The notes under the pieces: model-generated
Told to the model about the DNA's origin: nothing
The model's database searches: none
Seen by the model: the letters and a program-made list of their open reading frames with translations, nothing else
Shown here: positions 1 to 34,570 of the stretch, piece after piece
Layout of the letters: each line of letters starts with the position of its first letter
Numbering within the stretch: position 1 is the first letter of the stretch
Position numbers and translations under genes: made by a program
From: Flavobacteriales bacterium DA487
Lineage (GTDB): Bacteria > Bacteroidota > Bacteroidia > Flavobacteriales_D > Sanyastnellaceae
NCBI GenBank assembly: GCA_049334165.1
Contig: JBEGHD010000001.1
Direction: 5' to 3' (one strand)
DNA length: 64,000 nucleotides

Positions 1-1927
1 GATGGTGTTTGTCAACTCGCAACTCTTCAACTCCGAAGATCGCGGAAATTCCGTAGAGCAAATCCAAGAGCGGATTAAGCTATTTGAAAAAGAGACCGGT
101 ATCAACACTCACGTTTCTGGATTGCCGTACATCCGAACGGAGATGATGCAAAAGATTAAGGGGGAACTGCAGTTCTTTGTTATTCTCGCTGCCATTGTCA
201 CCTCCATTTTGCTGTTGCTCTTTTTCAGAAACTTCCGGGTGATGGTGACGTGCCTACTGGTAGTTTGTGTTGGCGTAATCTGGTCGATGGGGATGATCGC
301 CATTTTCGATTATCCACTCACCATGTTGATGGGATTGATCCCTCCGCTGATGATCGTTATCGGGATCCCCAATTGTATTTACCTGCTGAATAAATATCAC
401 TCCGAATACAAAAAGCATGGGAACCAAATGCGATCGCTTTCTCGTGTGATTTACAAGGTAGGGAACGCTACATTTTTGACGAACATGACCACGGCTCTCG
501 GTTTTGCCACGTTCATGTTTACCCACAGTCAGATCTTGCGCGAATTTGGCCTGATTGCGGCCATCAACATCATGTGCGTCTTCATCATTTCGCTGATCAT
601 CATCCCGATCGTGTTCAGCTATTTGAAGCCACCAAAAAGAAAGCACGTTCGCCACCTCGACCGCAGATGGCTTTACCATGTAATCGAGCAACTCCAAAAG
701 ATTGTGACGCACCACCGCAGAGCAGTCTACATTGGAACTGTTCTGGTTTTGGGTCTGGGCATTTACGGTGTCACGCTCGTGCAAACTACCGGAAACGTGG
801 TAGACGATTTGCCCGATGACAGCTCGGTAATTGTAGACCTCAAGTTTTTTGAAAAGAATTTCAACGGTGTGATGCCTTTTGAAATCCTGATCGATACGAA
901 AAGGAAAAATGCCATCACCAACGATGCGAACCTGAGACGAATTGAGAAGCTTCAGGAGCTGTTGGCCGAATATCCGCAGTTTTCGAAATCACTCTCAATT
1001 GCAGACGCTTCAAAATTCGCCAAACAGGCTTTTTATAACGGAGCACCCAATCGCTACGCGCTGATCAACAGAAACGAGCAGAGCTTCATTGGCCCCTACA
1101 TCCGTGGCGACTACCGAACGCAGGGCATCGAAAAAATGTTCATGGATTCTTCCAAACAGGTCACCAGAGTTACTGCACAGGTAGCCGATATCGGCACTCT
1201 CGAAATGGAGAAGCTGATGAACGACCTCAAACCCAAGATTGATAAGATTTTCCCTCCAGACAAATACGACATCACCATCACCGGGACGAGCATCGTCTTT
1301 TTGGAAGGAACGACCTACATGGTCAAGAATCTTTTCATCAGTTTGATGATTGCCATCGTGATCATCGCTTTGATCATGTCTTTCCTCTTCCGCTCAGCGC
1401 GAATGGTTTTAATTTCGCTTTTGCCAAACATGATTCCGCTGATCATCACTGCGGCCATTATGGGCTTCACGGGAATCACCATCAAGCCGAGTACTATTCT
1501 CGTTTTCTCTATCGCCTTTGGAATTTCTGTGGATGACACGATTCACTTCCTGGCCAAATATCGACAGGAGCTCGACCACTCGCACTGGACCATTGGAGAG
1601 TCTGTGTTGCGTGCTGTTCGCGAAACAGGAATTAGCATGCTCTACACTTCCATCGTGTTGTTCTTCGGATTTGGAATATTTGTAGCATCCGAATTTGAAG
1701 GAACTGCCGCACTGGGTGTGCTCGTTTCGGTTACTCTCCTGGTGGCAATGTTCACCAACCTTGTGCTGCTACCATCACTTTTGATGTCACTCGACAGAGC
1801 CATCACAACCAGAACTTTCAGCGAGCCGATGCTCGAAATTATCGATGAGGAAGAAGACATTGATCTTGACGAATTGGAGATAAAAGGCCAGCGCGAGATC
1901 GACAAAAGAGATAACGACCAGACTTAG
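1..1927 (+). CDS. RND superfamily / MMPL-type exporter, N-terminally truncated by the window edge (about 640 aa present: TM2-6, TM7, periplasmic loop 2, TM8-12)
   Basis: The ORF runs from the window edge with no upstream stop. Two hydrophobic helix bundles are separated by a periplasmic loop of about 250 aa, which is the typical RND/SSD architecture. Confidence 0.75.
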
Positions 1928-1950
1928 TAGAACACCGAAAACTACAAATC

Positions 1951-2820
1951 ATGAAAGGAATTATTCTGGCCGGTGGATCCGGCACACGACTTTATCCACT
2001 CACCAAAGCGGTAAGCAAACAACTCATGCCGGTTTACGACAAGCCGATGATCTACTACCCACTTTCGACCTTGCTTATTTCTGGTATTCGCGAGATCCTG
2101 ATCATTTCAACTCCACACGATTTGCCTGGGTTTAAACACCTTCTGGGTGATGGGTCGCAAATCGGGTGTTCCATTTCTTACAAGGAGCAACCGGAGCCAA
2201 AAGGACTCGCTCAGGCCTTCACACTTGGCGAAGAATTTATTGGTGACGACAAAGTAGCTTTAGTTCTCGGTGACAACATTTTTTATGGCAAAGGATTTGG
2301 AAAAATTCTCCGCGACAACACCGATGTAGACGGTGGAATGGTTTACGCCTACCACGTGTCAGACCCCGAGCGCTACGGTGTGGTGGAGTTCGACAAAAAC
2401 CAAAAGGCCATTTCTATTGAAGAAAAGCCGAAAAACCCCAAATCGAACTACGCGGTTCCTGGATTGTATTTCTATGACAACAATGTGATAGAGATCGCTA
2501 AAAACCTGAAGCCGAGTGCTCGCGGTGAGTACGAGATCACCGACATCAACAGGGCTTACCTAGAGCAGGGTAAACTCCAGGTGTCGAAGCTCGACCGTGG
2601 AACGGCCTGGTTGGACACCGGCACATTCCCGTCTTTGATGCAGGCCAGCCAGTACGTGCAGGTGATTGAAGATAGGCAGGGACTGAAAATTGGAGCCATC
2701 GAAGAAATCGCCTGGAGAATGGGCTACATCGATGATGCTCAGTTTGAAGCACTGGCAAAACCACTGGTTAAAAGTGGCTATGGCGATTATCTGTTGCAGC
2801 AGTTAAAAACCGAAAGGTAA
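1951..2820 (+). CDS. rfbA: glucose-1-phosphate thymidylyltransferase
   Basis: N-terminus [18 protein letters not shown] (nucleotidyltransferase G-rich loop); about 289 aa; overall RmlA-like sequence. Confidence 0.9.
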
Positions 2821-2841
2821 GCAACGTAAAAACGCACAAAT

Positions 2842-3837
2842 TTGAAACAGGAAATCGAACACTCCATGAAGTCGCTCTCGCAGTGTCAGCATCTAATCGT
2901 TGAAGCCATCGAAGAGTTTACTGCAGAAAATGGCAAAGGCGAACTCTACGAGCCCATCAATTACATCATGAACATTGGTGGAAAGCGGATGCGTCCTGCA
3001 CTCTTGCTCATGGCCTGCGATCTTTTTGGTGGAGATGTTCAAAAAGCGCTGAAGCCGGCTCTGGCCATAGAAGTGTTTCACAACTTCACCCTGATGCATG
3101 ACGACATCATGGACGAGGCTCCCATGCGAAGGGGCAAGAAAAGTGTTCACAAAAAGTGGGACACAAACGCGGCCATTCTCAGTGGAGACGCCATGATGGT
3201 GCAGGCTTACCAGCTGATCACCGAGACGCCCGACAAGCAATTGAAACCCGTGCTCGAAGTGTTCAGCGAAACGGCAATCGCAGTGTGCGAGGGCCAGCAG
3301 ATGGACATGGATTTTGAAAATCGGGATGACGTTGCCATCCACGAGTACCTCGAAATGATCAGGCTGAAAACCAGTGTTCTTGTAGCTGCAGCTCTAAAAA
3401 TCGGAGCCATCATTGCCGGTGCTTCCAAAAGAGATCAGGAACACGCTTATTTCTTCGGAGAAAAAATCGGGATGGCTTTTCAACTTCGTGACGATTATCT
3501 CGATGTGTTTGGCGAAGAAGACAAAGTCGGAAAACAAACCGGAGGCGACATCCTATCCGACAAAAAAACCTACCTCCTTTTGCGAGCCAGACAAAAAGCA
3601 TCGCCCGACCAGCTGAAAAAACTCAACGAGCTCAACGGCAACAATTCTGACCAAAAAGAGAAAGTCGAAAAGACCATCAAAATTTTTAGAGACCTGCGCG
3701 TAGATCACGAGCTGATTGAAAAATCGGAAATGTATTTCGCGGAAGCCATCACTCACCTCAACTCAATTAAACTCGAAGAGGAGCGCAAAATCGAACTTCA
3801 GCTCTTTGCCGAAAAACTCATGATCCGAGAAAGCTAA
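2842..3837 (+). CDS. polyprenyl diphosphate synthase family protein (IspA / GGPP-synthase-like)
   Basis: Two aspartate-rich motifs (LMHDDIMD and LRDDYLD) and KRMRPAL, typical of trans-isoprenyl diphosphate synthases. The start may instead be at the MKSLSQ methionine. Confidence 0.85.
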   Translation: MKQEIEHSMKSLSQCQHLIVEAIEEFTAENGKGELYEPINYIMNIGGKRMRPALLLMACDLFGGDVQKALKPALAIEVFHNFTLMHDDIMDEAPMRRGKKSVHKKWDTNAAILSGDAMMVQAYQLITETPDKQLKPVLEVFSETAIAVCEGQQMDMDFENRDDVAIHEYLEMIRLKTSVLVAAALKIGAIIAGASKRDQEHAYFFGEKIGMAFQLRDDYLDVFGEEDKVGKQTGGDILSDKKTYLLLRARQKASPDQLKKLNELNGNNSDQKEKVEKTIKIFRDLRVDHELIEKSEMYFAEAITHLNSIKLEEERKIELQLFAEKLMIRES

Positions 3838-19784: not shown

Positions 19785-20200
19785 AGTTAAGATGCGTTAC
19801 TCTCTGTGCAGTTAACAAAAATAACTCTTGAGCTCCGCAGGCTGAGAAAAGGAGAATTTGTTTATCAACCTGTTGGTGTGTAAAATAGAAAGGTTGCGGG
19901 TTTGTGAGTAGTTGATGACCGTGGGAAGTAGGTAATTGGGGGATTGAGGTGACTTGGGGATTGAGGAGGCTCAAGCTAATACATTATTAAACTTTTACCG
20001 GCTAGTACCTGAGGGTGTCGAGATAAAGTAGAGACAAGGTGATGGGGCCTGTGCGGTTTTGATCATGATTTTTGGAATTTGGTGCTTCTGGGAAAAGTCC
20101 CAGTGGGACGACATTTTGGTAGATATTGGCATTTTCCAAATTTACAAAGCTCCAGAGGAGCGGCATTATGGTAAGTATTCCCAAGGGAAAAAGTAGTATT
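19785..20200 (-). repeat. copy B of a dispersed intergenic element (about 400 bp) that carries a conserved small ORF and the palindrome GTCCCA-C-TGGGAC; related to copy A at 28250-28590
   Basis: About 80% nucleotide identity over the roughly 85-bp core (ATGCCGCTCCTCTGGAGC…TACCAAAATGTCGTCCCACTGGGACTT…), plus a shared distal block TAACTGCAC…GCAT…AACTT. Confidence 0.55.
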
Positions 20201-24044: not shown

Positions 24045-24770
24045 ATGAGTCGCGACTTTAACCAAAAAGACGAAATTGAAATCGTTGAAAAGCGAAAAAT
24101 AAAACGAATCACATTCGGCAATTTCGTGGCTTCAATTTTTGATGCCTTCAATCTCGAGCGCGGTTTAATTTTCACGATCAAACGGCTTTTTAAGAATCCG
24201 GGCAAGGCAGTTTCTGATTACCTTTCTACTGGACGGTTTAACTACACACCGCCCTTCCGACTACTTCTGGTAACTACTACCCTGATCATTTTGGTACTCA
24301 GCTTTTCCAGGTCAGGTAGTGAATTTATGAGTGGATTTACTTCAGAAATAGACAACGACAAGATCGTTCAGGACTTAAAATTCCTGGGACGGTTTCTCAA
24401 CCTAATTTTCTGGATTTTCATCCCAATCATCGCGTTTTTTCAATGGCTTTTCAACAGGCGCAGTGGCTACAACTACGCTGAGATGCTGGTTTTTCACACC
24501 TACATCTACTCCATTATTAATCTGATTTCACTTATCCTGGTTTTAGATTATTTCATCAACGGAGCCATTCTGACGCTCATCCTGATGGTGGGGTCTTCGA
24601 TCTACTACATTATTTCTTACAAAAGTTTTATGAAGAAAAGCTGGGGAAGAGCGATCTGGGAAATGATCGTTATCGGATCCATCAGCACCTTCATCTACAC
24701 AGTTATCATCATCGGGCTTATTGCGGGTATTATTATTCTGGAGCTCGGCCTGCCAGAAGTGGATATCTAA
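24045..24770 (+). CDS. multi-pass membrane protein (DUF3667-like)
   Basis: Soluble N-terminal segment of about 60 aa, then several hydrophobic helices; common Bacteroidetes architecture. Confidence 0.55.
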   Translation: MSRDFNQKDEIEIVEKRKIKRITFGNFVASIFDAFNLERGLIFTIKRLFKNPGKAVSDYLSTGRFNYTPPFRLLLVTTTLIILVLSFSRSGSEFMSGFTSEIDNDKIVQDLKFLGRFLNLIFWIFIPIIAFFQWLFNRRSGYNYAEMLVFHTYIYSIINLISLILVLDYFINGAILTLILMVGSSIYYIISYKSFMKKSWGRAIWEMIVIGSISTFIYTVIIIGLIAGIIILELGLPEVDI

Positions 24771-25303
24771 ACTCGCCAAACGACAGCTCTCAGGTCACCA
24801 TCGTGAGACATTGAAACATCCAGTTTTCGGCCTTTGTAAAGTCCGTAAGGCACACGTGAAGAGTCTTTTTGTAGAGTGATTTTTTGGCTTTTGAAATTGA
24901 TTGCTCTCGGTGCGGACTGATAGCTCTCGTACAAACTGGAAAACTCCAGATCTTCATTTAATTCAATTGCTGTGGCATGGATGTAATTACCGTCTTTTCG
25001 GCAAATACTTTTGAATCGAAGGTTTCCAATTTCAACCTGAAAGACAAACTCCTCTTCACTTACCTTGAATGCCTCGATGGAAATAGACTTCGGTTTAAAA
25101 ATACGCTCCCTGTACTTCTTAAACCAGGATTTATAAACCGCCTCTTTCACCGCCCAAAACTTCGCCTCCAGAAGAAATGGATCGTCTGCAGCTTCTATCC
25201 AGTTTCTCTCCCGCTGGGTGTAGATTTTCTGTCGGAAACGGCTGAGTCGATCTCCAGACCTGCGCTTCCAGTTGGGAAGGTAAACGAGGTCATTGCCGAT
25301 CAT
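24767..25303 (-). CDS. 4'-phosphopantetheinyl transferase (Sfp/AcpS superfamily)
   Basis: FWAVKEAVYK matches the W/FxxKEAxxK PPTase motif. 178 aa. Overlaps the ACP gene by 4 nt. Confidence 0.7.
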   Translation of the reverse strand: MIGNDLVYLPNWKRRSGDRLSRFRQKIYTQRERNWIEAADDPFLLEAKFWAVKEAVYKSWFKKYRERIFKPKSISIEAFKVSEEEFVFQVEIGNLRFKSICRKDGNYIHATAIELNEDLEFSSLYESYQSAPRAINFKSQKITLQKDSSRVPYGLYKGRKLDVSMSHDGDLRAVVWRV

Positions 25304-25557
25304 GATTTCTCTTTGAGCAGTCTTTCGGTAGCGTCAATAGCCTCACCCACAGTCAGCATTTTCTCGGCAGTGTCATCGTCAATTTCGATGTCAAACTCTT
25401 CCTCCATGTCGAGGATGATGTCGACCAGGTGAGCAGAATTGACCTGCAAGTCCTGGAGCATGTCGGTGTCCTCATTCACATTTTCAAAAGCCTCCTTGTT
25501 TTGCACGTAAGGCTCGATGACGGTTTTCAGTTTTTTGGTTATTTCCTCGCGGTTCAT
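25300..25557 (-). CDS. acyl carrier protein
   Basis: 85 aa, acidic, with the DLQVNSAHLVDI phosphopantetheine-attachment region. The start was chosen at MNREEI. Confidence 0.85.
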   Translation of the reverse strand: MNREEITKKLKTVIEPYVQNKEAFENVNEDTDMLQDLQVNSAHLVDIILDMEEEFDIEIDDDTAEKMLTVGEAIDATERLLKEKS

Positions 25558-26834
25558 GGAGTGTATTTTTTGAATATGACACATGAGTTGACATCGCCAA
25601 AGCCAAAGCTCGACTTTGCCACGACATTAATTTCTGCCTCCTCGAATGTACGTACAATTCGTTGTTCGTCAATAATGGCAGAGATCCCTGGGTGAACCTC
25701 TTCGCAATTGATGCTCGGATGCAAGAAGTTCTGGCTCAACTGAAGAACGGCAGCTACGTTCTCTATGGATCCCGCTGCACTGAGGCAATGGCCAATCAGC
25801 GATTTTAGCGCGTTGATTCGAGGGAAGTCGGCTCCACTTCTGCCGAGTGCTTCCGACCAGTTTTTCACCTCAGCCACATCGCCTTTGGTAGCCGTGAGGT
25901 GACCGGAAATCAAATCAATTTCCTTTGCTCCAATTTCCGCATCTGCCAGCGCTCCGCGAATGCAGTTTTGAATTCCTTCTTCGTTTGGCGCAGTCATACT
26001 TCCGCCATTTCTCTGTCCACCGCTGTTGAGGTGTCCACCGAGAACTTCAGCGTAGATTTTAGCTCCGCGGGTTTGAGCTGATTCAAGCGATTCGAGAATT
26101 AATGCCCCTGCTCCACTTCCGGGAACAAAACCTCCAGCGTCTGCAGCCATCGGTCGGCTTGCTGTTTGGGGGCTCTCGTTGTGCTTTGCGTTCAGAACCC
26201 GCATGGCATCGAAACCTCCCCACACGTAAGGTCCACCGGCATCGCAACTTCCCGCGATCATGATTTCCGCCCTTCCTCTTCGAATGTGATCGGTCGCCAG
26301 AATCACCGATTCAGTTCCGGTGCTGCAGGCACTGGCATTTGTAGTGACCCAGTTTCCGAGGCCAAATTTCCCGCTCAGGAAAGCACTGATTCCGCTGGGC
26401 ATGGTTTGCTCGACTGTTGAAGTGCCGAGTTTTCTCACCTTGACGTCATCGGTTTTATAGATCGCTTCTCTCAGCGTCTGAATTCCCGAGATGCCAGCAC
26501 CGAAAACGGCTCCACGGCCCCAGTGGGTTTGGCCCTCTTTTTCATCTGGAATTTCGAGTCCGGCAGAAAGCCAGGCCTCACGAGCAGCGAGTACACCGTA
26601 GATTACGCCATTTGCTTTTAGGCGCTTTCGCTCGAGAGGTGAAAAGTTGGCGTCCAGCATTTCTTCAGAAAGGTTTGGCGCACCGCCAACCTGGCACCGA
26701 AAGTCCAGTTCCTCCAATTCTGGGAAATAAGTGATTCCACTCCTCCCGGCTTTTAGAGCCCCGGTGAAATCTTCAACTCCAGTTCCATTTGGCGCGCAAA
26801 CGCCCAGCCCTGTGACGACAACTCTTCTGTTCAT
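25554..26834 (-). CDS. beta-ketoacyl-ACP synthase (KAS I/II-type)
   Basis: 426 aa; active-site Cys (NASACSTG) and two His (SGHLTATKGD, IGHCLSAAG). Confidence 0.9.
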   Translation of the reverse strand: MNRRVVVTGLGVCAPNGTGVEDFTGALKAGRSGITYFPELEELDFRCQVGGAPNLSEEMLDANFSPLERKRLKANGVIYGVLAAREAWLSAGLEIPDEKEGQTHWGRGAVFGAGISGIQTLREAIYKTDDVKVRKLGTSTVEQTMPSGISAFLSGKFGLGNWVTTNASACSTGTESVILATDHIRRGRAEIMIAGSCDAGGPYVWGGFDAMRVLNAKHNESPQTASRPMAADAGGFVPGSGAGALILESLESAQTRGAKIYAEVLGGHLNSGGQRNGGSMTAPNEEGIQNCIRGALADAEIGAKEIDLISGHLTATKGDVAEVKNWSEALGRSGADFPRINALKSLIGHCLSAAGSIENVAAVLQLSQNFLHPSINCEEVHPGISAIIDEQRIVRTFEEAEINVVAKSSFGFGDVNSCVIFKKYTP

Positions 26835-26871
26835 TTTTTTATTATCTGGTTCATTTTCAATTCTTCCTTGG

Positions 26872-26940
26872 CCATGTCTCGACTCCGCTAAACTTCCGCA
26901 GAAGCTTCAGTTTACTCAGTCGACAACCGGCCTTCGCACA
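26872..26940 (+). repeat. copy 2 of a short dispersed repeat (TGTCTCGACTCCGCT … CGACAACCGGCCTWCGC) carrying a 31-nt internal insertion; copy 1 is at 12068-12106
   Basis: The 15-mer plus 17-mer blocks are identical between the two intergenic sites (one mismatch). Confidence 0.45.
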
Positions 26941-26972
26941 AATGAATCAATTGATACCCCCGATTATTCATC

Positions 26973-27458
26973 TTACTGGTGTAAAATCTTCACCATCCCA
27001 CTCAGCTCGCCCACACAAACGCGCTCTTCTTTCTCATTGTAGAGTTCAACCAGACAGTTCAGTTTTCCGAGCCTCCAGTATTTTTTTCTAGAAATCACAT
27101 GCACCTTCTCACCGGGGTAAACCGGATTTTCAAACATTACTTTCGACTCGGTGAAGGCAAAAGCAGGCTGACCGTTTTCGGAGATCGATTCGTCATTCAT
27201 AGAAAGGTAAATTCCCAAGCAGGCTACGCCAATTTGTGCCATGCACTCGGTGAGAATCACTCCGGGAGTAACCGGGCGATCTTTGAAATGACCAGCATAA
27301 AAGTGCTCGTCTTCGCGGAACGTGTAAACTCCTTCGATGCTGTTTTCATCAATTCTCAACAGCTCGTCCACAAATCGAAATGGCGGACCATAAGGAAGAA
27401 TTTCCAGTATTTTTTCTTTTACATCTTTCATTTCACGCAATGTTTTCTCCTCCGTCAA
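26973..27458 (-). CDS. hotdog-fold 3-hydroxyacyl-ACP dehydratase (FabZ/FabA-like)
   Basis: …FYAGHFKDRPVTPGVILTECMAQ… places the catalytic His in the FabZ-like motif. Alternative start MKDVKEK at 27431 would remove the 26-nt overlap with the KR gene. Confidence 0.8.
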   Translation of the reverse strand: MTEEKTLREMKDVKEKILEILPYGPPFRFVDELLRIDENSIEGVYTFREDEHFYAGHFKDRPVTPGVILTECMAQIGVACLGIYLSMNDESISENGQPAFAFTESKVMFENPVYPGEKVHVISRKKYWRLGKLNCLVELYNEKEERVCVGELSGMVKILHQ

Positions 27459-28224
27459 CCGGAATTACCGCTCCGTTGATCCACTTTGATTCGGGTTTCG
27501 AAAAAAGATAAACGGCATTGGCCACATCTTCCGGTGTTGTCAGACGGTGATAGGGATTTCTTTTCAGGCTTCCTTCAATCAGCTTGTCGCTGCCGGGAAT
27601 CATTCGCAGTGCCGGAGTGTCGGTGATGCCAGGTTGCAAAACATTTGCTCTCAGTCCGAGAGGCGCCAGCTCCAACGCCAAATTTCTGTTGATGGATTCG
27701 AGAGCACTCTTGGCGGCAGCAACAGCTCCGTAATTCCGCCAGGCTTTTCGAGCACCTTCGCTCGTGAGCGCAAGAAGTGAAGCATCTTCGGAAAACAAAC
27801 TGCGACTCAAAATCGCCTTCGCCCAGGAATAGTAGCTCACGGCCATGGCGTTGATGGTGATTGAAAAATCATCTTCCGAAAGCGTGTTTTCTACACTTTC
27901 GCCCTGACTTTTGGGTGCCATAGGTTTTAAGTTTCCTTTGGCCAGCGAGTGAAGCATGAGATCGACTTTCACACCAGCTTCTGACAACTCGTCCAAAATG
28001 GAGTTGATGTTTTCTTCTTTGAGCGCATCGGCATTGAAACTGCGAATTTCGATTCCACCTCTGCGCCAATCCTCAAAAGCCTCCTCTACTTTTCGGGCAT
28101 CGCTCTTTCTGCTGCGATACACCAGCACGAGGTCAAAACCTTCGCTGGCGAGTTTCTTTGCGGATGCAAAACCCATCCCGCTGCTGGCACCGAGAATGAT
28201 AGCGGTATTTTTGTTTTTATTCAA
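27433..28224 (-). CDS. short-chain dehydrogenase / 3-oxoacyl-ACP reductase (FabG-like)
   Basis: TAIILGASSGMGFA Rossmann motif and an SDR catalytic S…Y…K arrangement. Confidence 0.85.
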   Translation of the reverse strand: MNKNKNTAIILGASSGMGFASAKKLASEGFDLVLVYRSRKSDARKVEEAFEDWRRGGIEIRSFNADALKEENINSILDELSEAGVKVDLMLHSLAKGNLKPMAPKSQGESVENTLSEDDFSITINAMAVSYYSWAKAILSRSLFSEDASLLALTSEGARKAWRNYGAVAAAKSALESINRNLALELAPLGLRANVLQPGITDTPALRMIPGSDKLIEGSLKRNPYHRLTTPEDVANAVYLFSKPESKWINGAVIPVDGGENIA

Positions 28225-28249
28225 TTTTTATTTGTTTTCATTTTTAAGT

Positions 28250-28590
28250 TAGACCATTATGTCGCTCCTCCGGAGCTTGTTCGTTGTTGGCTCTGTCATT
28301 GGCTACCAAAATGTCGTCCCTCTGGGACTTTCTCCAAAAGCAACTAAGTGCTCCGAAATGCTGGAGTTTCTCACAGAGACCACCGAAAAAAAGCACCGAG
28401 CTCACCTAGCGTTTTTCACAATTGAATACCCTCCTGATCAACCTACCAAGATTTCTCTGTCTTCTCCGTGAAGTCTCTGCGAGCTCTGCGAGAACATCCG
28501 TAGCTGCAAGCAACTCCCACCTTCGTTCTTCTACGCTGGGCAAGCATAAGTCAAAACAGATCTGCCCTAACTGCACGCATTCCAACTTTC
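28250..28590 (+). repeat. copy A of the dispersed intergenic element (see copy B at 19785-20200); it encodes the paralogous small ORF MSLLRSLFVVGSVIGYQNVVPLGLSPKA… and the palindrome GTCCC-TCT-GGGAC
   Basis: Aligned by eye against the reverse complement of 20085-20170; the distal TAACTGCAC…GCAT…AACTT block is also shared. Confidence 0.55.
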
Positions 28591-28642
28591 GTTTCACTAC
28601 GGTCGGCAAGCGTAATTCATAATTGACACTTTCATAACTCAA

Positions 28643-29701
28643 TCACTCCCATTTCAACAACAACCGCTGCGCGGAAAAGCCAGGACCAAAACTCAGCATC
28701 AATCCGTAATCGTCTTTTTTCACTTTCACGTTTTCGAGGTATTCTTCCAAAACATAAAGAACTGTTGCGCTGCTCATGTTTCCATAAACCCGCAACACTT
28801 CCCTGGTGACATCGATGTGTTTGCCGCGTGCATGCAGCAATTCCTCAACCATCTTCACGATTTTCTTTCCTCCGGGATGAAAAATAAAATGCTCCACATC
28901 GTCCACCTTCAAATCATTTCGCTCCAGGAAAGGCAACAAAATCCGATCGAAGTGCTCCTCAATCTTTTCGGGAACTGACGGGTCGAGCACCATTTTCAAA
29001 CCGGAGTTTTTCAGGTCGAAACCCATCATTCGCGATTCATCAAAGAAGTGATACATCGCCCGGTCGACAATTCTCGGCAAGAGTTTTTTATCGTCAGGAC
29101 CCAGAATCGTGCAAGCAGCTCCATCGCCAAAAATGGCGGCACTCACCATGTTGGTCATGCTGTAATCATCGAGCTGAAAAGTACTCGTTGGTGATTCCAG
29201 AGCAATCACAGCAGCTCGTTTGTCGGGTTGCGATTTGAGCAAGTCGTGGGCGTACATTAGAGCAGAAGTCCCGGCAGCACAACCCATCTCCGTTACCGGC
29301 AGGCGCATGATGTCCTGCTTCATTTTGAGTCGGTTGATGAGAAAAGCATCTACCGATGGAATCATAATTCCCGTGCAGGAAACCGTGATGATGTAATCGA
29401 TGTCTGTAGGTTTGAGCTCCGCTTTGGCAAGTGCTTTTCGCAAAGCATCCTCCGCCAGGTCTGTCATTCGCTCCGAGTAGAGGTTGTTCTTTTCTTCGAA
29501 AGAAGTTTGTGTAAAAACCTCTTCTGGCGACATGATGCTGTAGCGCTTGTCCACCTGAGCGTACTTAAAAATCCTGAGAACTTTGTCGCGAAAGCGTTTC
29601 GGTTGATCGCTCAACCAGCTTTCTACAAATGGCAGAATCTCTTCGGTCGTTCTTGTGTACTGGGGTAATGCTTTGGCGGTGGAGAGTATTTTGGTTGTCA
29701 A
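28643..29701 (-). CDS. type III polyketide synthase (chalcone/stilbene synthase family; alkylresorcinol/alkylpyrone synthase-like)
   Basis: Catalytic Cys in MGCAAGTSAL, His in FIFHPGGKKIV, Asn in GNMSSATVL, and the C-terminal SFGPGFS (GFGPG signature). 352 aa. These motifs distinguish it from FabH/DarB-type KS III. Confidence 0.85.
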   Translation of the reverse strand: MTTKILSTAKALPQYTRTTEEILPFVESWLSDQPKRFRDKVLRIFKYAQVDKRYSIMSPEEVFTQTSFEEKNNLYSERMTDLAEDALRKALAKAELKPTDIDYIITVSCTGIMIPSVDAFLINRLKMKQDIMRLPVTEMGCAAGTSALMYAHDLLKSQPDKRAAVIALESPTSTFQLDDYSMTNMVSAAIFGDGAACTILGPDDKKLLPRIVDRAMYHFFDESRMMGFDLKNSGLKMVLDPSVPEKIEEHFDRILLPFLERNDLKVDDVEHFIFHPGGKKIVKMVEELLHARGKHIDVTREVLRVYGNMSSATVLYVLEEYLENVKVKKDDYGLMLSFGPGFSAQRLLLKWE

Positions 29702-29707
29702 TATTTT

Positions 29708-30412
29708 TTAGTGTTTGGTGTCGATGATGGCCACCCAGCGAAACGCCCAGCGCCATTTCAATTTAAAGTTTTTGAGATCTGCTTTGTTCAGCAGCCTGTT
29801 CCAATCCTTTTTGGTGAAACTCTTTTTTACACTCAACTTCCCATCGTGGCGGCTGATGTGAGAAAATCGAAAAATACGAGAAGTCAGTCGAAAAAGCTGA
29901 TACGGAATCCAGTTTCGCTGCAAATCGTTGATGACAATGAATCGCGAGTTTTCGGCAGCCCTTTGCAGCAGCTCCACAATCTGATCATCGCTAAAATGAT
30001 GCAGCACCAGATTGAAAAGAACGATATCGAAATTTTCTTCGGGCCAATTTTCAAAAAGATCGGCACACACAAAATGAATGTTATCGAACGCTGCATTTTC
30101 CTTTTTGGCAAACTCCACGGCCGTTGAGTTGGCATCAAGCCCCACAAGTTCAAGTTTGCGGTTCTTAAAAATGGGGGTTTTGGCCAGGGCAGCCAGCGTA
30201 TCGCCTCCTCCACAACCCAGGTCGGCAATTCTCCAGTTTGATTTTGGGTCATCGCTGAGAATTTCCCTCACCGCACTAATGGCAATTTGATGTCCACCGA
30301 GCAGGCGATTTACTTTTCCGAGCTCGCGAAGATTTTCTGTCAGATCATTCCCAGTCAGCTCCAAATCGTCCAGTATTTCAGGCTCTCGCGAACGTTCTCT
30401 AATCTTTAGCAT
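29708..30412 (-). CDS. class I SAM-dependent methyltransferase
   Basis: IADLGCGGGD motif I; 234 aa. Confidence 0.8.
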   Translation of the reverse strand: MLKIRERSREPEILDDLELTGNDLTENLRELGKVNRLLGGHQIAISAVREILSDDPKSNWRIADLGCGGGDTLAALAKTPIFKNRKLELVGLDANSTAVEFAKKENAAFDNIHFVCADLFENWPEENFDIVLFNLVLHHFSDDQIVELLQRAAENSRFIVINDLQRNWIPYQLFRLTSRIFRFSHISRHDGKLSVKKSFTKKDWNRLLNKADLKNFKLKWRWAFRWVAIIDTKH

Positions 30413-30414
30413 TG

Positions 30415-31539
30415 TTATTCTACTGGTTTTCCGTGGGCCATTTTGGAAGCTCGCCCCAGCAATGGCGGAAATGTGCGCATTAAGCCAAGAGCCGCTCCGG
30501 TCAATCGCGGCTTGCCGAAAAGCTTACTCGCCTTGCGGCCAAAATAAAGCCTCGAGCCAAATTCATTTTTCCACGCTTTGCCGTAGCTTTTTTCCATCTC
30601 TTCTCTGGAGCAATTGCCGCTCAAAAATTGGTGAATTGCATCAGAACAAATCTGTGCGCTGTGAATGGCCATGGCCATGCCGTTTCCGCAAAAAGGATGA
30701 ATCAAACCGGCCGAGTCGCCACTCATCATCACGTGATCTTCGACAACCGGCTTTGGGTCAAAGTTGATCTGGCTGATCACAAGGGGTGACTTAAAAATCG
30801 GACTTGAATTCTCGAAGAAACTCTTGAGGTGAGGATTTTGAGCGAGGTGGTTCATCTCCATTTCCTCTATTCCAGAATATTTTTCCAAAACTTGCTGATC
30901 TACCAGGTAGCAGAGGTTCACCGCTCCGGTTTCCACTTTTGACAGCCCGCAGTAGCCACCATTAAAGTTGTGCAGCTGAACCAGATTTTCCTGAAAGTCT
31001 GACTCGTAGTGGCACTTCACACCAACGTAGGAAGTTCGCTTTTGCATAAAACTCCTGTCCAGTTCCTTGTCGAGATTGCTGCGCTTGCCAAAAGCTCCAA
31101 TCACAACCTGCGCTTTCACTTCCACTCCGCTTCTTGTCTTCAGGAAAAAGTGATCTGCATCGAAAGCCAGTTGTTTCACTCGCTCGTTGATCAAAACTTC
31201 AGCTCCCGACTTTTGGGCAACATCGGCCAGATGATCATCAAAAGCAAAACGGCTGATTCCGAATCCAGCGAGGTCTAGCTCCGATCCGACAACTTTGCCC
31301 GAAAGGTCGCTGATCTCGAGTCGATCAATTTCAGCGACATTTAAATCAGTCGGAAAAGCTCCGAGTCGATTGAGATAAGGCCTAATCTCGTTGCTCACAA
31401 ATTCACCGCAAACTTTGTGTTTGGGAAATTTGTCTTTTTCGAAAAGCACCACCGAGTAGCCCCGTTGCGAGAGGTCAATCGCGTTCACCAACCCGGCCAG
31501 CCCGCCACCGATGATCGCTATTTGATAATGACTTTTCAT
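30415..31539 (-). CDS. FAD-dependent oxidoreductase (geranylgeranyl-reductase / flavin monooxygenase-like)
   Basis: N-terminal dinucleotide-binding fold IAIIGGGLAGL…VLFEK…CGEF; 374 aa. Confidence 0.8.
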   Translation of the reverse strand: MKSHYQIAIIGGGLAGLVNAIDLSQRGYSVVLFEKDKFPKHKVCGEFVSNEIRPYLNRLGAFPTDLNVAEIDRLEISDLSGKVVGSELDLAGFGISRFAFDDHLADVAQKSGAEVLINERVKQLAFDADHFFLKTRSGVEVKAQVVIGAFGKRSNLDKELDRSFMQKRTSYVGVKCHYESDFQENLVQLHNFNGGYCGLSKVETGAVNLCYLVDQQVLEKYSGIEEMEMNHLAQNPHLKSFFENSSPIFKSPLVISQINFDPKPVVEDHVMMSGDSAGLIHPFCGNGMAMAIHSAQICSDAIHQFLSGNCSREEMEKSYGKAWKNEFGSRLYFGRKASKLFGKPRLTGAALGLMRTFPPLLGRASKMAHGKPVE

Positions 31540-31604: not shown

Positions 31605-32396
31605 TTATTCCAAAACTATCACTGCTGCGGGGTCAAGCACCTCAAAGGTAAACGATTCGGTGAAGTACAAATTCACATTTTTCACTTCGTGGTAGTCGTA
31701 GCCGACAGACAAGTCTCGACCGAGGGTCAACCTGAAGTCGCCTCCGCGCTGCGACACCAAAAAGGCATCTTTGATGTGATGGGAGAAAATGATTTTACCA
31801 CCCAGCAATTTTTCAACTTGTTTTTTCAACGGATAGCCGGAATCAATGTCGCTGGCCAGTTTTTGCCATTTGTCTTTATCAACTACCAGCGAATAAGGAC
31901 CTTCCACTCCGGCTTTCTTAAACATGCTCAGCCCTTGCGCAATCGTCTGGAGCAGTTCTGAATTCTCGCCAAACTTCAACTTCTCGTGTTCACTAGCATC
32001 TTTCAAACCTTTAATCCCGGCCTTGTTCATACCGTAGTAAATCGCTTTCTCTTCAAATTCAGCAATGGCGTTAGCCGCGTCTTCCAGGTTGTCGAGTTCC
32101 ACGTCTTCATTTCCGCGCTCAGCATTGTCAAGCTCCCACACGTTGAGTTTAAAACTCACTCGCGGTTCCACCAGCGGCTGCACTTCGTGAATTCCGTACT
32201 GTAAACTTCCCTTTTGTCCTTTAGGGATTTCCAATCGGCCTTTGCTCACCGATCCGTAGTCCCAACCTTTGGGTCCGTCCACGTCCACAAACTTCCGCGC
32301 AGAAAGCACCGAGCTAAAAATCTCAACTGATTGTTCATCTATTTCGTCCCAGGCCTTGTCGGCAATGGGCGCCAAACTTCTTCTCAATAAATCCAT
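31605..32396 (-). CDS. Family 1 encapsulin nanocompartment shell protein (HK97-fold, linocin-M18-like)
   Basis: 263 aa; collinear with the T. maritima encapsulin throughout (MDLLRRSLAPIADKAWDEID…RKFVDVDGPKGWDYG…WELDN…ERG…GVEGPYSLVV…YPLKKQVE…GGKII…RGGDF…LGRDLSVGY). Confidence 0.9.
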   Translation of the reverse strand: MDLLRRSLAPIADKAWDEIDEQSVEIFSSVLSARKFVDVDGPKGWDYGSVSKGRLEIPKGQKGSLQYGIHEVQPLVEPRVSFKLNVWELDNAERGNEDVELDNLEDAANAIAEFEEKAIYYGMNKAGIKGLKDASEHEKLKFGENSELLQTIAQGLSMFKKAGVEGPYSLVVDKDKWQKLASDIDSGYPLKKQVEKLLGGKIIFSHHIKDAFLVSQRGGDFRLTLGRDLSVGYDYHEVKNVNLYFTESFTFEVLDPAAVIVLE

Positions 32397-32417: not shown

Positions 32418-32777
32418 TTAGTGATCAATTTTTCCAATTCCGAGTCCCTTGTCAGCACCACCTTTTTTACCAGACGATTTTCCTGTAGCCTCTTTTTCAG
32501 CTTTCAGAATGTCGCCCTCGCTAAACAGGTAGGTGCGCAATTGCTCGTCCCATCCAGGCTGATTTCTCCTCAACCACTCCAGGGTCATGCAAGCGTGTTC
32601 CATCTCCTCGTTGCGGTTGTGCTCCAGTATTTTTCGAAGTTGTTCGTCCTCGCAAGGATCGATGCGCTGCTGATACCAGTCAATCGCCTCAACCTCTTCT
32701 TGCAAGGTGTTAAGAGCGCGTCTGTATTCGCGCGTTTCTTTGCTGAGCTCTTCAGCCGGTTCGTGAAATTCTGACAT
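32418..32777 (-). CDS. encapsulated ferritin-like cargo protein (EncFtn) with a C-terminal encapsulin-targeting peptide
   Basis: EncFtn-like core (…EAIDWYQQRI…LRKILEHNRNEEMEHACMTLEWLRR…), a flexible Gly/Lys linker and the terminal GLGIGKIDH cargo-loading motif. The start was chosen at MSEFHEP, 119 aa. Confidence 0.85.
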   Translation of the reverse strand: MSEFHEPAEELSKETREYRRALNTLQEEVEAIDWYQQRIDPCEDEQLRKILEHNRNEEMEHACMTLEWLRRNQPGWDEQLRTYLFSEGDILKAEKEATGKSSGKKGGADKGLGIGKIDH

Positions 32778-32883
32778 GTCTTTTTTGTTTTGGGTTTCAA
32801 ATAAAAAATCAACGACCACCGACCCGAAAAGATCGACAGCCATTGATTTAACAACAAGAGAATCGTAAGATGTTCAAATTTTT

Positions 32884-32975
32884 GGGCGCCCACCGCTCAA
32901 TCGCGGTGCCGGGCTTTCCGCTATATCTTGCCCTCAGCCGGGCAAGGATGCCGCGTCAATCCCTGGCGCGGGGCG
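32884..32975. other. GC-rich (about 67% GC), stem-rich element of about 92 nt; candidate structured RNA or protein-binding site. Strand unknown
   Basis: Nested complementary segments CGCCC…GGGCG, CGCGGU…GCCGCG, CUUGCCC-UCAGCC-GGGCAAG, and two TCAATC-loop hairpins. GC content is far above the flanking DNA. Confidence 0.3.
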
Positions 32976-32998: not shown

Positions 32999-34570
32999 CT
33001 ACTTGAAAGTTACCTTGCCAACTTTCTGCTTATTTCCGTCAAGGGTATACATAAACAGATGACCGCCATCACGAGATGCCTCAGAAAATCCTGGCACCAG
33101 AAGTTGTCCTGTTTCGTCATTGTTACTCAGTAATTCCGAACTCACATTTCCCGATTCATCCACAATTGTCCACGCTGTAAAGTTGGTTTTGAGGGTCGAT
33201 CGACCCATTCCTTTTTGCTCTTCTTCAGAATAGAAAAACTCACCCGCTACATTGTAGAAAAGATGGATCTGTCCATTCTTAAATACAGGGTACGTATAAG
33301 CCTCATGGAAGTCAGGACTCCGGCTCTCGAGCTCTTGCTTTTTATCAACCATAGAAATCCACTGAATCTCACCTTCCGAGCTCGCTGACACCGTGATTAT
33401 GTCCATGGTTTTCATGAAGTATTTAGTGTCTGATTCACTGTCAAAATACTGTTCAGCAACAAATTGGAAACCATTTGTACTTGCATTCAAACCTCTCAAC
33501 TCCATTTCTATTTCTGGTCTATACCTGGATTCCGCACCGAGTAAACCTTTTCGAACCATGCTTTTAGCAATAACACCACTTGCGAACTCGTCCGCACTTG
33601 ACCCTGTAATTCTCATACTGTTCGGGTCAACACTAAAAACAAATGCACCATCAGTCGTAACATCCTCGTCAGACGTGATGTTGTTGCTAAAGATGCCTCC
33701 GACAAGCAGGTTATCTGATGATGCAAAAGCATAATCCGATATCAAAACACGTCTATTCTCTAAATCAAGATTGAGATACTTTTCTGTACCCTCAGAAATT
33801 GAATATTTATAAAGTAGCAGCCGGTCCATTTTTGGCTTTTCTCCGAGAGAACGGCTTTCAAGACCCGGTTCCTTTTTGTTCTCACTGATCAATTGAATAA
33901 AAAGATCCCCTGACCCAGTCGCTCTGGGGACAAAATGAATCGGGTTGTAGAAAGAAGTCCATTTCATAATCGGCTCAATATCATAATCCTCAAGCTCGAG
34001 TACAATTTCTTTTTCATGCTGCAGATTCATTTCCAAATCGAAAAGCTTGTAGTCCACTTGCATGCCATACTTATTGTTTAAAATAGCGATTTTAGACTCA
34101 TCCTCTGAAAAGAGGACTTCAAAGGAACCTCTATAATATTTGTCCGGCAGCCTCTCTTTCGTTGACCAAAATACTTTTGGTGAAGCTGTAACCCTGAAAG
34201 ACTTAATGTCGATTTTTAGAAACGCAAGTTTATCAGACTTTTCAATCTCCGAGTCGTCTTTCAAAAAGACAAATAATTCATCTCCTACAACAAGTAGTTT
34301 GACAAACTCTGCTTCACCTTCAGCAAATTTGCCAGAAACTTCGATCGTACCTGCGAGATTCATATTCCCGTCAAACTTTTCTACTGTAATATCTCTTCCC
34401 GCTTTGACAATGAAAAAATCACTATTTGCTACAATGGTTTGCTCAACCTCCTGCTTGCGTGAGTTCTTAACCTCCTCGCTCCACTGAATTTCTGCTTTCT
34501 CGGTAAGATCCTGGGCTGTGAGTGAAATAGAAATAAAGGCTGACATTAGTCCAATGAATAGTTTGCGCAT
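32999..34570 (-). CDS. hypothetical secreted protein (523 aa)
   Basis: Signal peptide MRKLFIGLMSAFISISLTAQ; no motif recognised. Confidence 0.6.
   Translation of the reverse strand: MRKLFIGLMSAFISISLTAQDLTEKAEIQWSEEVKNSRKQEVEQTIVANSDFFIVKAGRDITVEKFDGNMNLAGTIEVSGKFAEGEAEFVKLLVVGDELFVFLKDDSEIEKSDKLAFLKIDIKSFRVTASPKVFWSTKERLPDKYYRGSFEVLFSEDESKIAILNNKYGMQVDYKLFDLEMNLQHEKEIVLELEDYDIEPIMKWTSFYNPIHFVPRATGSGDLFIQLISENKKEPGLESRSLGEKPKMDRLLLYKYSISEGTEKYLNLDLENRRVLISDYAFASSDNLLVGGIFSNNITSDEDVTTDGAFVFSVDPNSMRITGSSADEFASGVIAKSMVRKGLLGAESRYRPEIEMELRGLNASTNGFQFVAEQYFDSESDTKYFMKTMDIITVSASSEGEIQWISMVDKKQELESRSPDFHEAYTYPVFKNGQIHLFYNVAGEFFYSEEEQKGMGRSTLKTNFTAWTIVDESGNVSSELLSNNDETGQLLVPGFSEASRDGGHLFMYTLDGNKQKVGKVTFK

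Follow-up and report, generated by a model that had tools for sequence, protein, structure and literature searches.

A widespread Bacteroidota gene cluster in Halocola ammonii joins a type III polyketide synthase to a discrete fatty-acid-synthase-like module and probably directs phenolic lipid synthesis

A stretch of 64,000 nucleotides from contig JBEGHD010000001.1 (assembly GCA_049334165.1, Flavobacteriales bacterium DA487), referred to here as the window, contains an eight-gene cluster spanning 6.8 kb in which a type III polyketide synthase (PKS) gene lies between flavoprotein and methyltransferase genes on one side and a fatty acid synthase (FAS)-like gene set on the other. The eight genes probably form an operon for the biosynthesis of a phenolic lipid with a long chain, of the alkylresorcinol or alkylpyrone type. 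The evidence comes from its gene content, intact catalytic residues, co-linear synteny with related loci, and the homology of three of its genes to a validated alkylresorcinol operon. The PKS, the beta-ketoacyl synthase and the flavoprotein each match a Halocola ammonii protein at NCBI with 100% identity, the entry matching the PKS being named 'type III polyketide synthase [Halocola ammonii]'. H. ammonii, a halophile of the Flavobacteriales, was described only recently (PMC12838360).

Protein families were assigned to the open reading frames (ORFs) by Pfam and NCBIfam profile searches, and PDB matches, Rfam, an AlphaFold2 (AF2) model and Foldseek were also used. An earlier sequence-only reading of the window had placed eight ORFs here, all on the minus strand, and their coordinates agree exactly with the ORF list. 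The cluster is laid out as follows.

30415..31539, minus strand: flavin adenine dinucleotide (FAD)-dependent oxidoreductase (flavoprotein), 374 aa; Pfam and NCBIfam, geranylgeranyl (GG)-reductase superfamily, 121 bits
29708..30412, minus strand: class I S-adenosylmethionine (SAM)-dependent methyltransferase, 234 aa; PRK06202-like NF004851, E 2e-40
28643..29701, minus strand: type III PKS, 352 aa; Chal_sti_synt_N E 1e-21, Chal_sti_synt_C E 3e-23
28225..28642, no strand: intergenic spacer, 418 bp, Halocola-specific, with a ~90-bp repeat inside resembling repetitive extragenic palindromic (REP) elements
27433..28224, minus strand: short-chain dehydrogenase/reductase (SDR) of the FabL/FabI enoyl-acyl carrier protein (ACP) reductase type, 263 aa; NCBIfam FabL, PDB 3oic
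26973..27458, minus strand: FabZ-like 3-hydroxyacyl-ACP dehydratase (DH), 152 aa from the probable start at 27431; FabA domain 3e-13
25554..26834, minus strand: FabB/FabF-like beta-ketoacyl-ACP synthase (KAS), 426 aa; Ketoacyl-synt N and C domains
25300..25584, minus strand: stand-alone ACP, 85 aa from the probable start at 25557; NCBIfam ACP models, best E 5e-13
24767..25303, minus strand: 4'-phosphopantetheinyl transferase (PPTase), 178 aa; ACPS domain/superfamily, 5e-12

The genes had been described as separated by short gaps or overlaps, which is true of five of the seven junctions (from a 31-nt overlap up to a 6-bp gap) and fails at the PKS-SDR (418 bp) and DH-KAS (138 bp) junctions. Gaps of 2 and 6 bp separate the genes of the co-directional triad of flavoprotein, methyltransferase and PKS, and at the other end of the cluster the PPTase ORF shares 4 nt with the end of the ACP ORF. 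Translation of the ACP likely begins at Met10 (25557), immediately past the KAS stop codon, and that of the dehydratase likely at its own Met10 (27431); the resulting lengths agree with those of relatives. The earlier observation is thus confirmed with two corrections, and the interpretation placed on it is partly supported.

Related loci were collected by a scan of species-representative genomes, which gave at least 600 pattern matches; of these, 590 were verified to be relatives, and the best 80 loci were examined, annotated by tblastn mapping and ORF clustering. For counts of gene presence, 72 loci had sufficient sequence upstream, 67 had sufficient sequence downstream, and 65 were adequately long overall. 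A second sampling route collected relatives by KAS homology in place of PKS homology.

Judged by its sequence, the PKS gene product is a genuine type III PKS and not a FabH or DarB, as had been proposed. Its Chal_sti_synt N and C domains score 77.4 and 82.9 bits against a Pfam cut-off of 27, and among the NCBIfam models DpgA gives 168 bits, FabH 91 (cut-off 249) and DarB 36 (cut-off 550). The catalytic signatures listed by the sequence-only reading (Cys in GCAAG, HPGG, GNMSSA and a GFGPG-like C-terminus) are all present, as MGC141AAG, FH275PGG, GN308MSSA and SFGPGF, and together with Cys141, His275 and Asn308 they are invariant among the 80 relatives. The three catalytic residues align to the triads of PKS11, THNS and CylI, which are also the best PDB matches (M. 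tuberculosis PKS11, 6e-52; S. coelicolor THNS, 5e-43; CylI, 1e-41); Steely1 is among the matches as well. PKS11 is an alpha-pyrone synthase, and both PKS11 and CylI use long-chain acyl substrates. Weak secondary matches to ACP_syn_III domains are what might be said for a FabH/DarB-type ketosynthase acting in a flexirubin-like dialkylresorcinol pathway. We regard this as next to impossible in view of the DarB and FabH scores, the Chal_sti_synt domains and DpgA match, the chalcone synthase (CHS) motifs HPGG, GNMSSA and GFGPG, and the NCBIfam profile search of the cluster, in which DarA was not found.

The five genes downstream of the PKS form the FAS-like module. Its first member, the SDR, had been taken for a FabG-like ketoreductase, and this assignment is ruled out by a Tyr-x6-Lys arrangement and by best matches to FabL. 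The top NCBIfam match is FabL (144 bits, cut-off 328), with FabI next, and in the PDB it is B. subtilis FabL (3oic), whose catalytic Tyr and Lys line up with those of the SDR. In the arrangement Tyr165-x6-Lys172 the Tyr is kept in 62 of 65 homologues and the Lys in all of them; the classical SDR motif YxxxK was not found, the residue four before the Lys being Val in 60 of the 65. By these sequence criteria the SDR is a FabL/FabI-type enoyl-ACP reductase (ER) and, since it scores under the FabL equivalog cut-off, a paralogue. Because it is an enoyl reductase and not FabG, the cluster is without a ketoreductase (KR). The module accordingly comprises a ketosynthase (KS), ACP, DH, ER and PPTase, with neither a KR nor a malonyl-CoA:ACP transacylase (MAT), and we infer that these two functions come from housekeeping FabG and FabD.

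The remaining module proteins retain their catalytic residues and score below the family cut-offs. The dehydratase gives a FabZ score of 66 bits (cut-off 113), with His57 and Glu71 invariant in 74 homologues, some matching ApeI-like and ApeP-like Pfam families. The KAS scores 280 bits as fabF (cut-off 494); its best PDB match is the Brucella FabB-like 3u0f (8e-60), and its triad Cys170/His312/His349 is invariant in 69 homologues. The ACP reaches 20.4 bits for Pfam PP-binding, slightly under the cut-off of 20.8, and falls below the NCBIfam cut-offs (49 against 71; AcpP equivalog TIGR00517, 45 against 70), and Ser50 in its L-x-(I/V)-N-S motif is invariant in 68 homologues. The PPTase, found in 51 of the 67 loci with enough downstream flank, is the fastest-evolving cluster member, with a median identity of 27% among relatives.

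That the module is a dedicated, non-housekeeping set, as the sequence-only reading had it, is supported, if indirectly, by the FabF, FabZ, AcpP and FabL scores, all far under the NCBIfam cut-offs. The converse, that housekeeping fab genes merely happen to lie beside a type III PKS, draws on family-level similarity and nothing further, and is highly improbable: besides the scores (FabF 280 against 494, FabZ 66 against 113, ACP 49 against 71, FabL 144 against 328), the SDR gene is dispensable, being absent in 10 of 65 otherwise complete loci, and a dedicated PPTase is present. In addition, 13 related loci have a distinct fabH-accB-accC set a few kb upstream, and an Ignavibacteriaceae locus described below carries a second KAS. 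No paralogues of the FAS-like genes were found in the window.

The methyltransferase matches Methyltransf_31/25/12/11 and has a DxGCGxGD motif, and is predicted to be a class I SAM-dependent enzyme methylating either O or C. The flavoprotein is placed by sequence in the group-A flavoprotein/GG-reductase/halogenase-like superfamily: its TIGR02032 score is below the cut-off for that model, and it also matches QhpG, LodB, UbiH and halogenase models. Invariant in 76 homologues are GGGLAG, K42-V-C44-G-E46 and G274-D-x-A-G...P-x-C-G-N-G-M, and the KVCGE segment holds an invariant Cys resembling that of geranylgeranyl reductase (GGR). PDB profile matches are led by the carrier-dependent flavin halogenases Mpy16, CmlS and PltA, followed by GGR (3oz2). 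With the AF2 model (pLDDT 88.7), Foldseek scored halogenases, 3-hydroxybenzoate 6-hydroxylase, UbiI, PqsL and GGR about equally. A canonical halogenase, considered on account of these PDB matches and of the unexplained chlorination of hierridin C, was rejected since WxWxIP was not found in the flavoprotein; the segment aligned to DGWVWMIPI of CmlS reads GGYCG(V/L)SKV. The most likely role of the flavoprotein, on the analogy of HidB and SrsC, is hydroxylation of the ring.

Sequence comparison with planctomycetal proteins shows the flavoprotein-methyltransferase-PKS triad to be distantly homologous to the triad of hid type. Synthetic mtr and fdo genes of Gimesia maris were read by optical character recognition (OCR) from the supplement of PMC10896814 and compared using a frameshift-tolerant aligner and shuffled controls; for the PKS, one planctomycetal t3pks was used, the last t3pks sequence in that supplement. 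The methyltransferase is 28% identical to Mtr over the full length (score 164, shuffled 34±6), the flavoprotein 30% identical to Fdo (131, shuffled 38±5), and the PKS 32% identical to the planctomycetal t3pks (286, shuffled 34±4), so that the scores are 3.5 to 8.5 times those of the controls. The Halocola and planctomycetal proteins have in common the motifs REPE(l/i)xD, GGGD, FP(K/R)xKVCG and GDxAG..P..G.GMA, and it is because of these motifs and the full-length alignments that we regard the triads as homologous. The planctomycetal PKSs produced pentadecyl- and heptadecyl-resorcinols (C15/C17) in C. glutamicum (PMC10896814), and the proteins of their operon are 48-55% identical to cyanobacterial HidABC, the makers of hierridin B (PMC10896814; PMC6836626).

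The cluster had been called unusual in a Bacteroidetes host. This proved incorrect: it is typical of Bacteroidota and found across hundreds of species, not exceptional, because the same gene order recurs in several orders. At least 590 related stretches are present in species-representative genomes, and type III PKS clusters account for about 10% (~9-11%) of the biosynthetic gene clusters (BGCs) of Flavobacteriaceae (PMC7440613; PMC10734526). Hosts include Flavobacteriales (among them Owenweeksia, Polaribacter, Winogradskyella, Psychroserpens, Aequorivita and Tenacibaculum), Chitinophagales (Chitinophaga and Saprospiraceae), Cytophagales (one metagenome-assembled genome, MAG) and Sphingobacteriales; loci in Flavobacterium and Pedobacter were found through the KAS sampling, in which four of five KAS homologues adjoin the triad.

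In these relatives the conserved co-directional order is flavoprotein, methyltransferase, PKS, SDR, DH, KAS, ACP and PPTase. Both flavoprotein and methyltransferase genes are present in 71 of 72 loci, and DH, KAS and ACP genes together in 61 of 67. Seven genes are found in 49 of the 65 adequately long loci and all eight in 40. Median intergenic gaps are ~0-8 bp, that from the PKS to the next gene being ~1 bp. Since the flanking genes vary by lineage, the eight-gene block itself is the conserved unit.

Several variations on this order were seen. The ER gene is absent in many Polaribacter, Tenacibaculum, Flavobacterium and Pedobacter loci. We also noted that some Polaribacter have an ORF of ~190 aa at the usual ER position (L046:11067-11627, L058:11138-11698, L066:11085-11669), unrelated to ER and, by eye only, like an IS200/RAYT-type transposase. 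An MMPL transporter gene directly follows the PPTase in 12 related loci and in locus L085. A YceI-like lipid-binding protein and a protein of ~150 aa, the latter without a Pfam family and with a C-terminus GreA/GreB-like by eye, accompany the cluster as a pair (L019:7131-8159, L039:14089-15073 and ~35 other loci), either upstream of the flavoprotein or downstream of the PPTase and never between the halves. A second methyltransferase accompanies it in some relatives. None of these accessory genes is present in the Halocola cluster, and the pair of YceI-like and GreA/GreB-like proteins is missing from the entire window.

The spacer between PKS and SDR sets Halocola apart. At 418 bp it is the largest in the set; in the relatives the median is 1 bp and the longest gap 223 bp. 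Its ~90-bp REP-like repeat (28253-28342, plus strand) has two short GC-rich hairpins, and an inverted copy with 76% identity lies downstream of a ferritin gene (20083-20172, minus strand). The spacer has no homologue across the 80 related loci and no Rfam match, and a 78-aa ORF within it belongs to no Pfam protein family. A hidden gene or RNA was thus ruled out, the repeat being the sole feature found. Promoter and terminator scans and a search for TAnnTTTG in the gaps gave nothing above background.

A single operon for a phenolic lipid is favoured by the conserved adjacency, by the homology of the triad and by FAS-like proteins that score under the cut-offs and come with their own PPTase. It is favoured also by the PKS relatives that use long-chain acyls and by the MMPL and YceI accessory genes of related loci. 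A number of points weigh against it. Because the 418-bp spacer with its repeat lies between the two halves, their co-transcription in Halocola is not assured. The halves are also separable: reduced variants have the triad only (L010), the triad and ER (L055) or the PKS alone (L007), planctomycetes and cyanobacteria have the triad alone, and in an Ignavibacteriaceae MAG (L081:3698-7079) an SDR-DH-KAS-ACP-PPTase module with a KAS 59% identical to that of Halocola has no type III PKS, methyltransferase or flavoprotein near it, and a second KAS on the opposite strand. The Gimesia comparison rests on OCR-read DNA with frameshifts. The sequence and fold of the flavoprotein fit a hydroxylase or a reductase alike, and resorcinol and pyrone cyclisation cannot be told apart from the PKS sequence. 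An Aquimarina type III PKS family matches no compound in MIBiG (PMC9860996), and neither a product nor a description of this architecture was found in the full-text literature, most subscription journals being outside its coverage, beyond genome-mining mentions.

The spacer and the separable halves, together with the finding that planctomycetal PKSs function without a dedicated ACP (PMC10896814), would also fit two independent neighbouring operons, the triad acting on ordinary acyl-CoA or housekeeping acyl-ACP, like the planctomycetal enzymes in C. glutamicum, and the module making some other lipid such as a special fatty acid. We think this rather unlikely. The halves adjoin tightly and co-directionally (median ~1 bp) over several orders and amid very different flanks, and the YceI-like and Gre-like genes occur only on the outer sides of the block.

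If the eight genes do act together, the PKS might still lactonise its product without aldol cyclisation and so yield an alkyl-alpha-pyrone (as with PKS11, PKS18 and ArsC) and not an alkylresorcinol. The closest solved relative, PKS11, makes an alpha-pyrone, and the JGI name for the PKS family, 'alkylresorcinol/alkylpyrone synthase', covers both. We nonetheless consider a pyrone unlikely, though to be taken seriously, as the planctomycetal and cyanobacterial triad homologues give resorcinols (PMC10896814; PMC6836626), and a ring methyltransferase and hydroxylase-like flavoprotein suit the tailoring of a resorcinol.

For a phenolic lipid operon we infer the following starter hand-off, chain length, ring type and tailoring. 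The PPTase would convert the stand-alone ACP to its holo form, and the KAS would condense an acyl chain from primary metabolism with malonyl on this dedicated ACP, so that the chain moves there. The dehydratase and FabL-type ER, with housekeeping FabG and FabD, would then finish one or more elongation cycles. The resulting acyl-ACP would serve as the starter for the PKS, which would add malonyl units and cyclise the chain to a phenolic head, and the methyltransferase and flavoprotein would presumably methylate and hydroxylate the ring to give a methoxy-alkylphenol, hydroquinone or quinone of the hierridin/Srs kind.

Known couplings of FAS to type III PKSs use a type I FAS (ars), a fused FAS-PKS (Steely) or a pair of fatty acyl-AMP ligase (FAAL) and ACP (ftp). 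We suggest, tentatively, that the discrete KS, DH, ER, ACP and PPTase constitute a coupling not described before, a 'chain-transfer elongation' from a primary to a private ACP. The products of such a design would form a new family of phenolic lipids or polyketide quinones, methylated and hydroxylated, that is common among Bacteroidota of sea and soil. The lineages lacking ER (Polaribacter, Tenacibaculum, Flavobacterium and Pedobacter) would make unsaturated variants, and the design would be a means of starter supply not yet described biochemically. Type III PKS clusters rank with the most frequent BGCs of Flavobacteriaceae. If the operon model is correct, a large share of marine and soil Bacteroidota would make dedicated phenolic lipids or polyketide quinones, which might serve as constituents of the membrane or outer membrane, as antioxidants or as alternative electron carriers. 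As the cluster is compact (6.8 kb, eight genes), it is easy to test by heterologous expression.

Some neighbouring genes in the window were also noted. A family-1 encapsulin shell gene (31605-32396, minus strand; encap_f1, 280 bits) runs in the direction of the flavoprotein gene, 65 bp upstream of it, together with an EncFtn ferritin-like cargo gene (32418-32843, minus strand). A functional link of these two to the PKS cluster was rejected, as they are absent from all 80 related loci. Just upstream of EncFtn is a Flavo-1 RNA motif (32903-32972, minus strand), a full-length model match of 40.3 bits (E 5e-6) against a gathering score of 42, and the strand of the encapsulin operon carries, upstream of that operon, a 523-aa ORF without a Pfam family (32999-34570, minus strand). 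Positions 2-3837 (plus strand) encode a truncated MMPL/RND-type transporter, a nucleoside triphosphate (NTP)-transferase and a polyprenyl synthetase. This MMPL gene (2-1927) is not counted in the cluster because of its low identity to the cluster-linked MMPLs (25-28%) and its distance of 23 kb.

Among characterised systems, hidABC of Cyanobium and the planctomycetal mtr-fdo-t3pks operons are like the Halocola triad in encoding these three kinds of enzyme in a single co-directional operon that ends with the PKS. Their order is methyltransferase, flavoprotein, PKS, whereas in Halocola and 75 related loci the flavoprotein precedes the methyltransferase. They also lack an ACP, KAS, DH, ER and PPTase, their starters presumably being fatty-acyl thioesters of primary metabolism. 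The srsABC genes of Streptomyces griseus likewise combine a PKS with a methyltransferase and a flavoprotein, a likeness of enzyme class, and yield methylated alkylresorcinols and alkylquinones, but without a FAS-like module. The joining of PKS, methyltransferase and flavoprotein in the manner of hid/srs-type alkylresorcinol pathways had been recognised from the sequence, and we concur.

The analogy drawn earlier with Azotobacter vinelandii arsABCD stands as a functional one only. There, too, dedicated fatty-acid machinery is encoded beside a type III PKS, which receives its acyl chain straight from the ACP; the conserved adjacency suggests such a transfer for Halocola as well. The ars machinery, however, consists of the multidomain type I synthases ArsA and ArsD with two PKSs, ArsB and ArsC (PMC3098273), whereas Halocola has five discrete type II-like proteins, one PKS and no KR or acyltransferase (AT), plus the methyltransferase and flavoprotein. 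Delivery of a starter from an ACP to a type III PKS has a precedent in ArsA (Miyanaga 2008, as cited in PMC3098273), and delivery by a carrier protein has one in FtpC/FtpD (Hayashi 2011, as cited in PMC10896814). In the ftp system of Myxococcus xanthus (FtpA PKS, FtpC ACP, FtpD FAAL) a stand-alone ACP, as in Halocola, presents the PKS starter. It is loaded there by the fatty acyl-AMP ligase, in place of which Halocola has the KAS/DH/ER set; an AMP-binding domain was not found in the cluster or in the flanks scanned (~4.5 kb downstream and 8 kb upstream).

Aryl-polyene and flexirubin machinery resembles the Halocola cluster in its discrete KS, ACP and FabZ-like dehydratase, and the MMPL exporter seen in some relatives of the cluster is a further likeness. 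Halocola differs in having no second KS or chain length factor (CLF), KR, DarA/DarB, tyrosine ammonia-lyase (TAL) or 4-coumarate:CoA ligase (4CL), and, unlike in those pathways, its aromatic ring would derive from the type III PKS. Of the characterised hid, srs, ars, ftp and agq systems, none has the discrete KS/DH/ER/ACP/PPTase module carried by the Halocola cluster.

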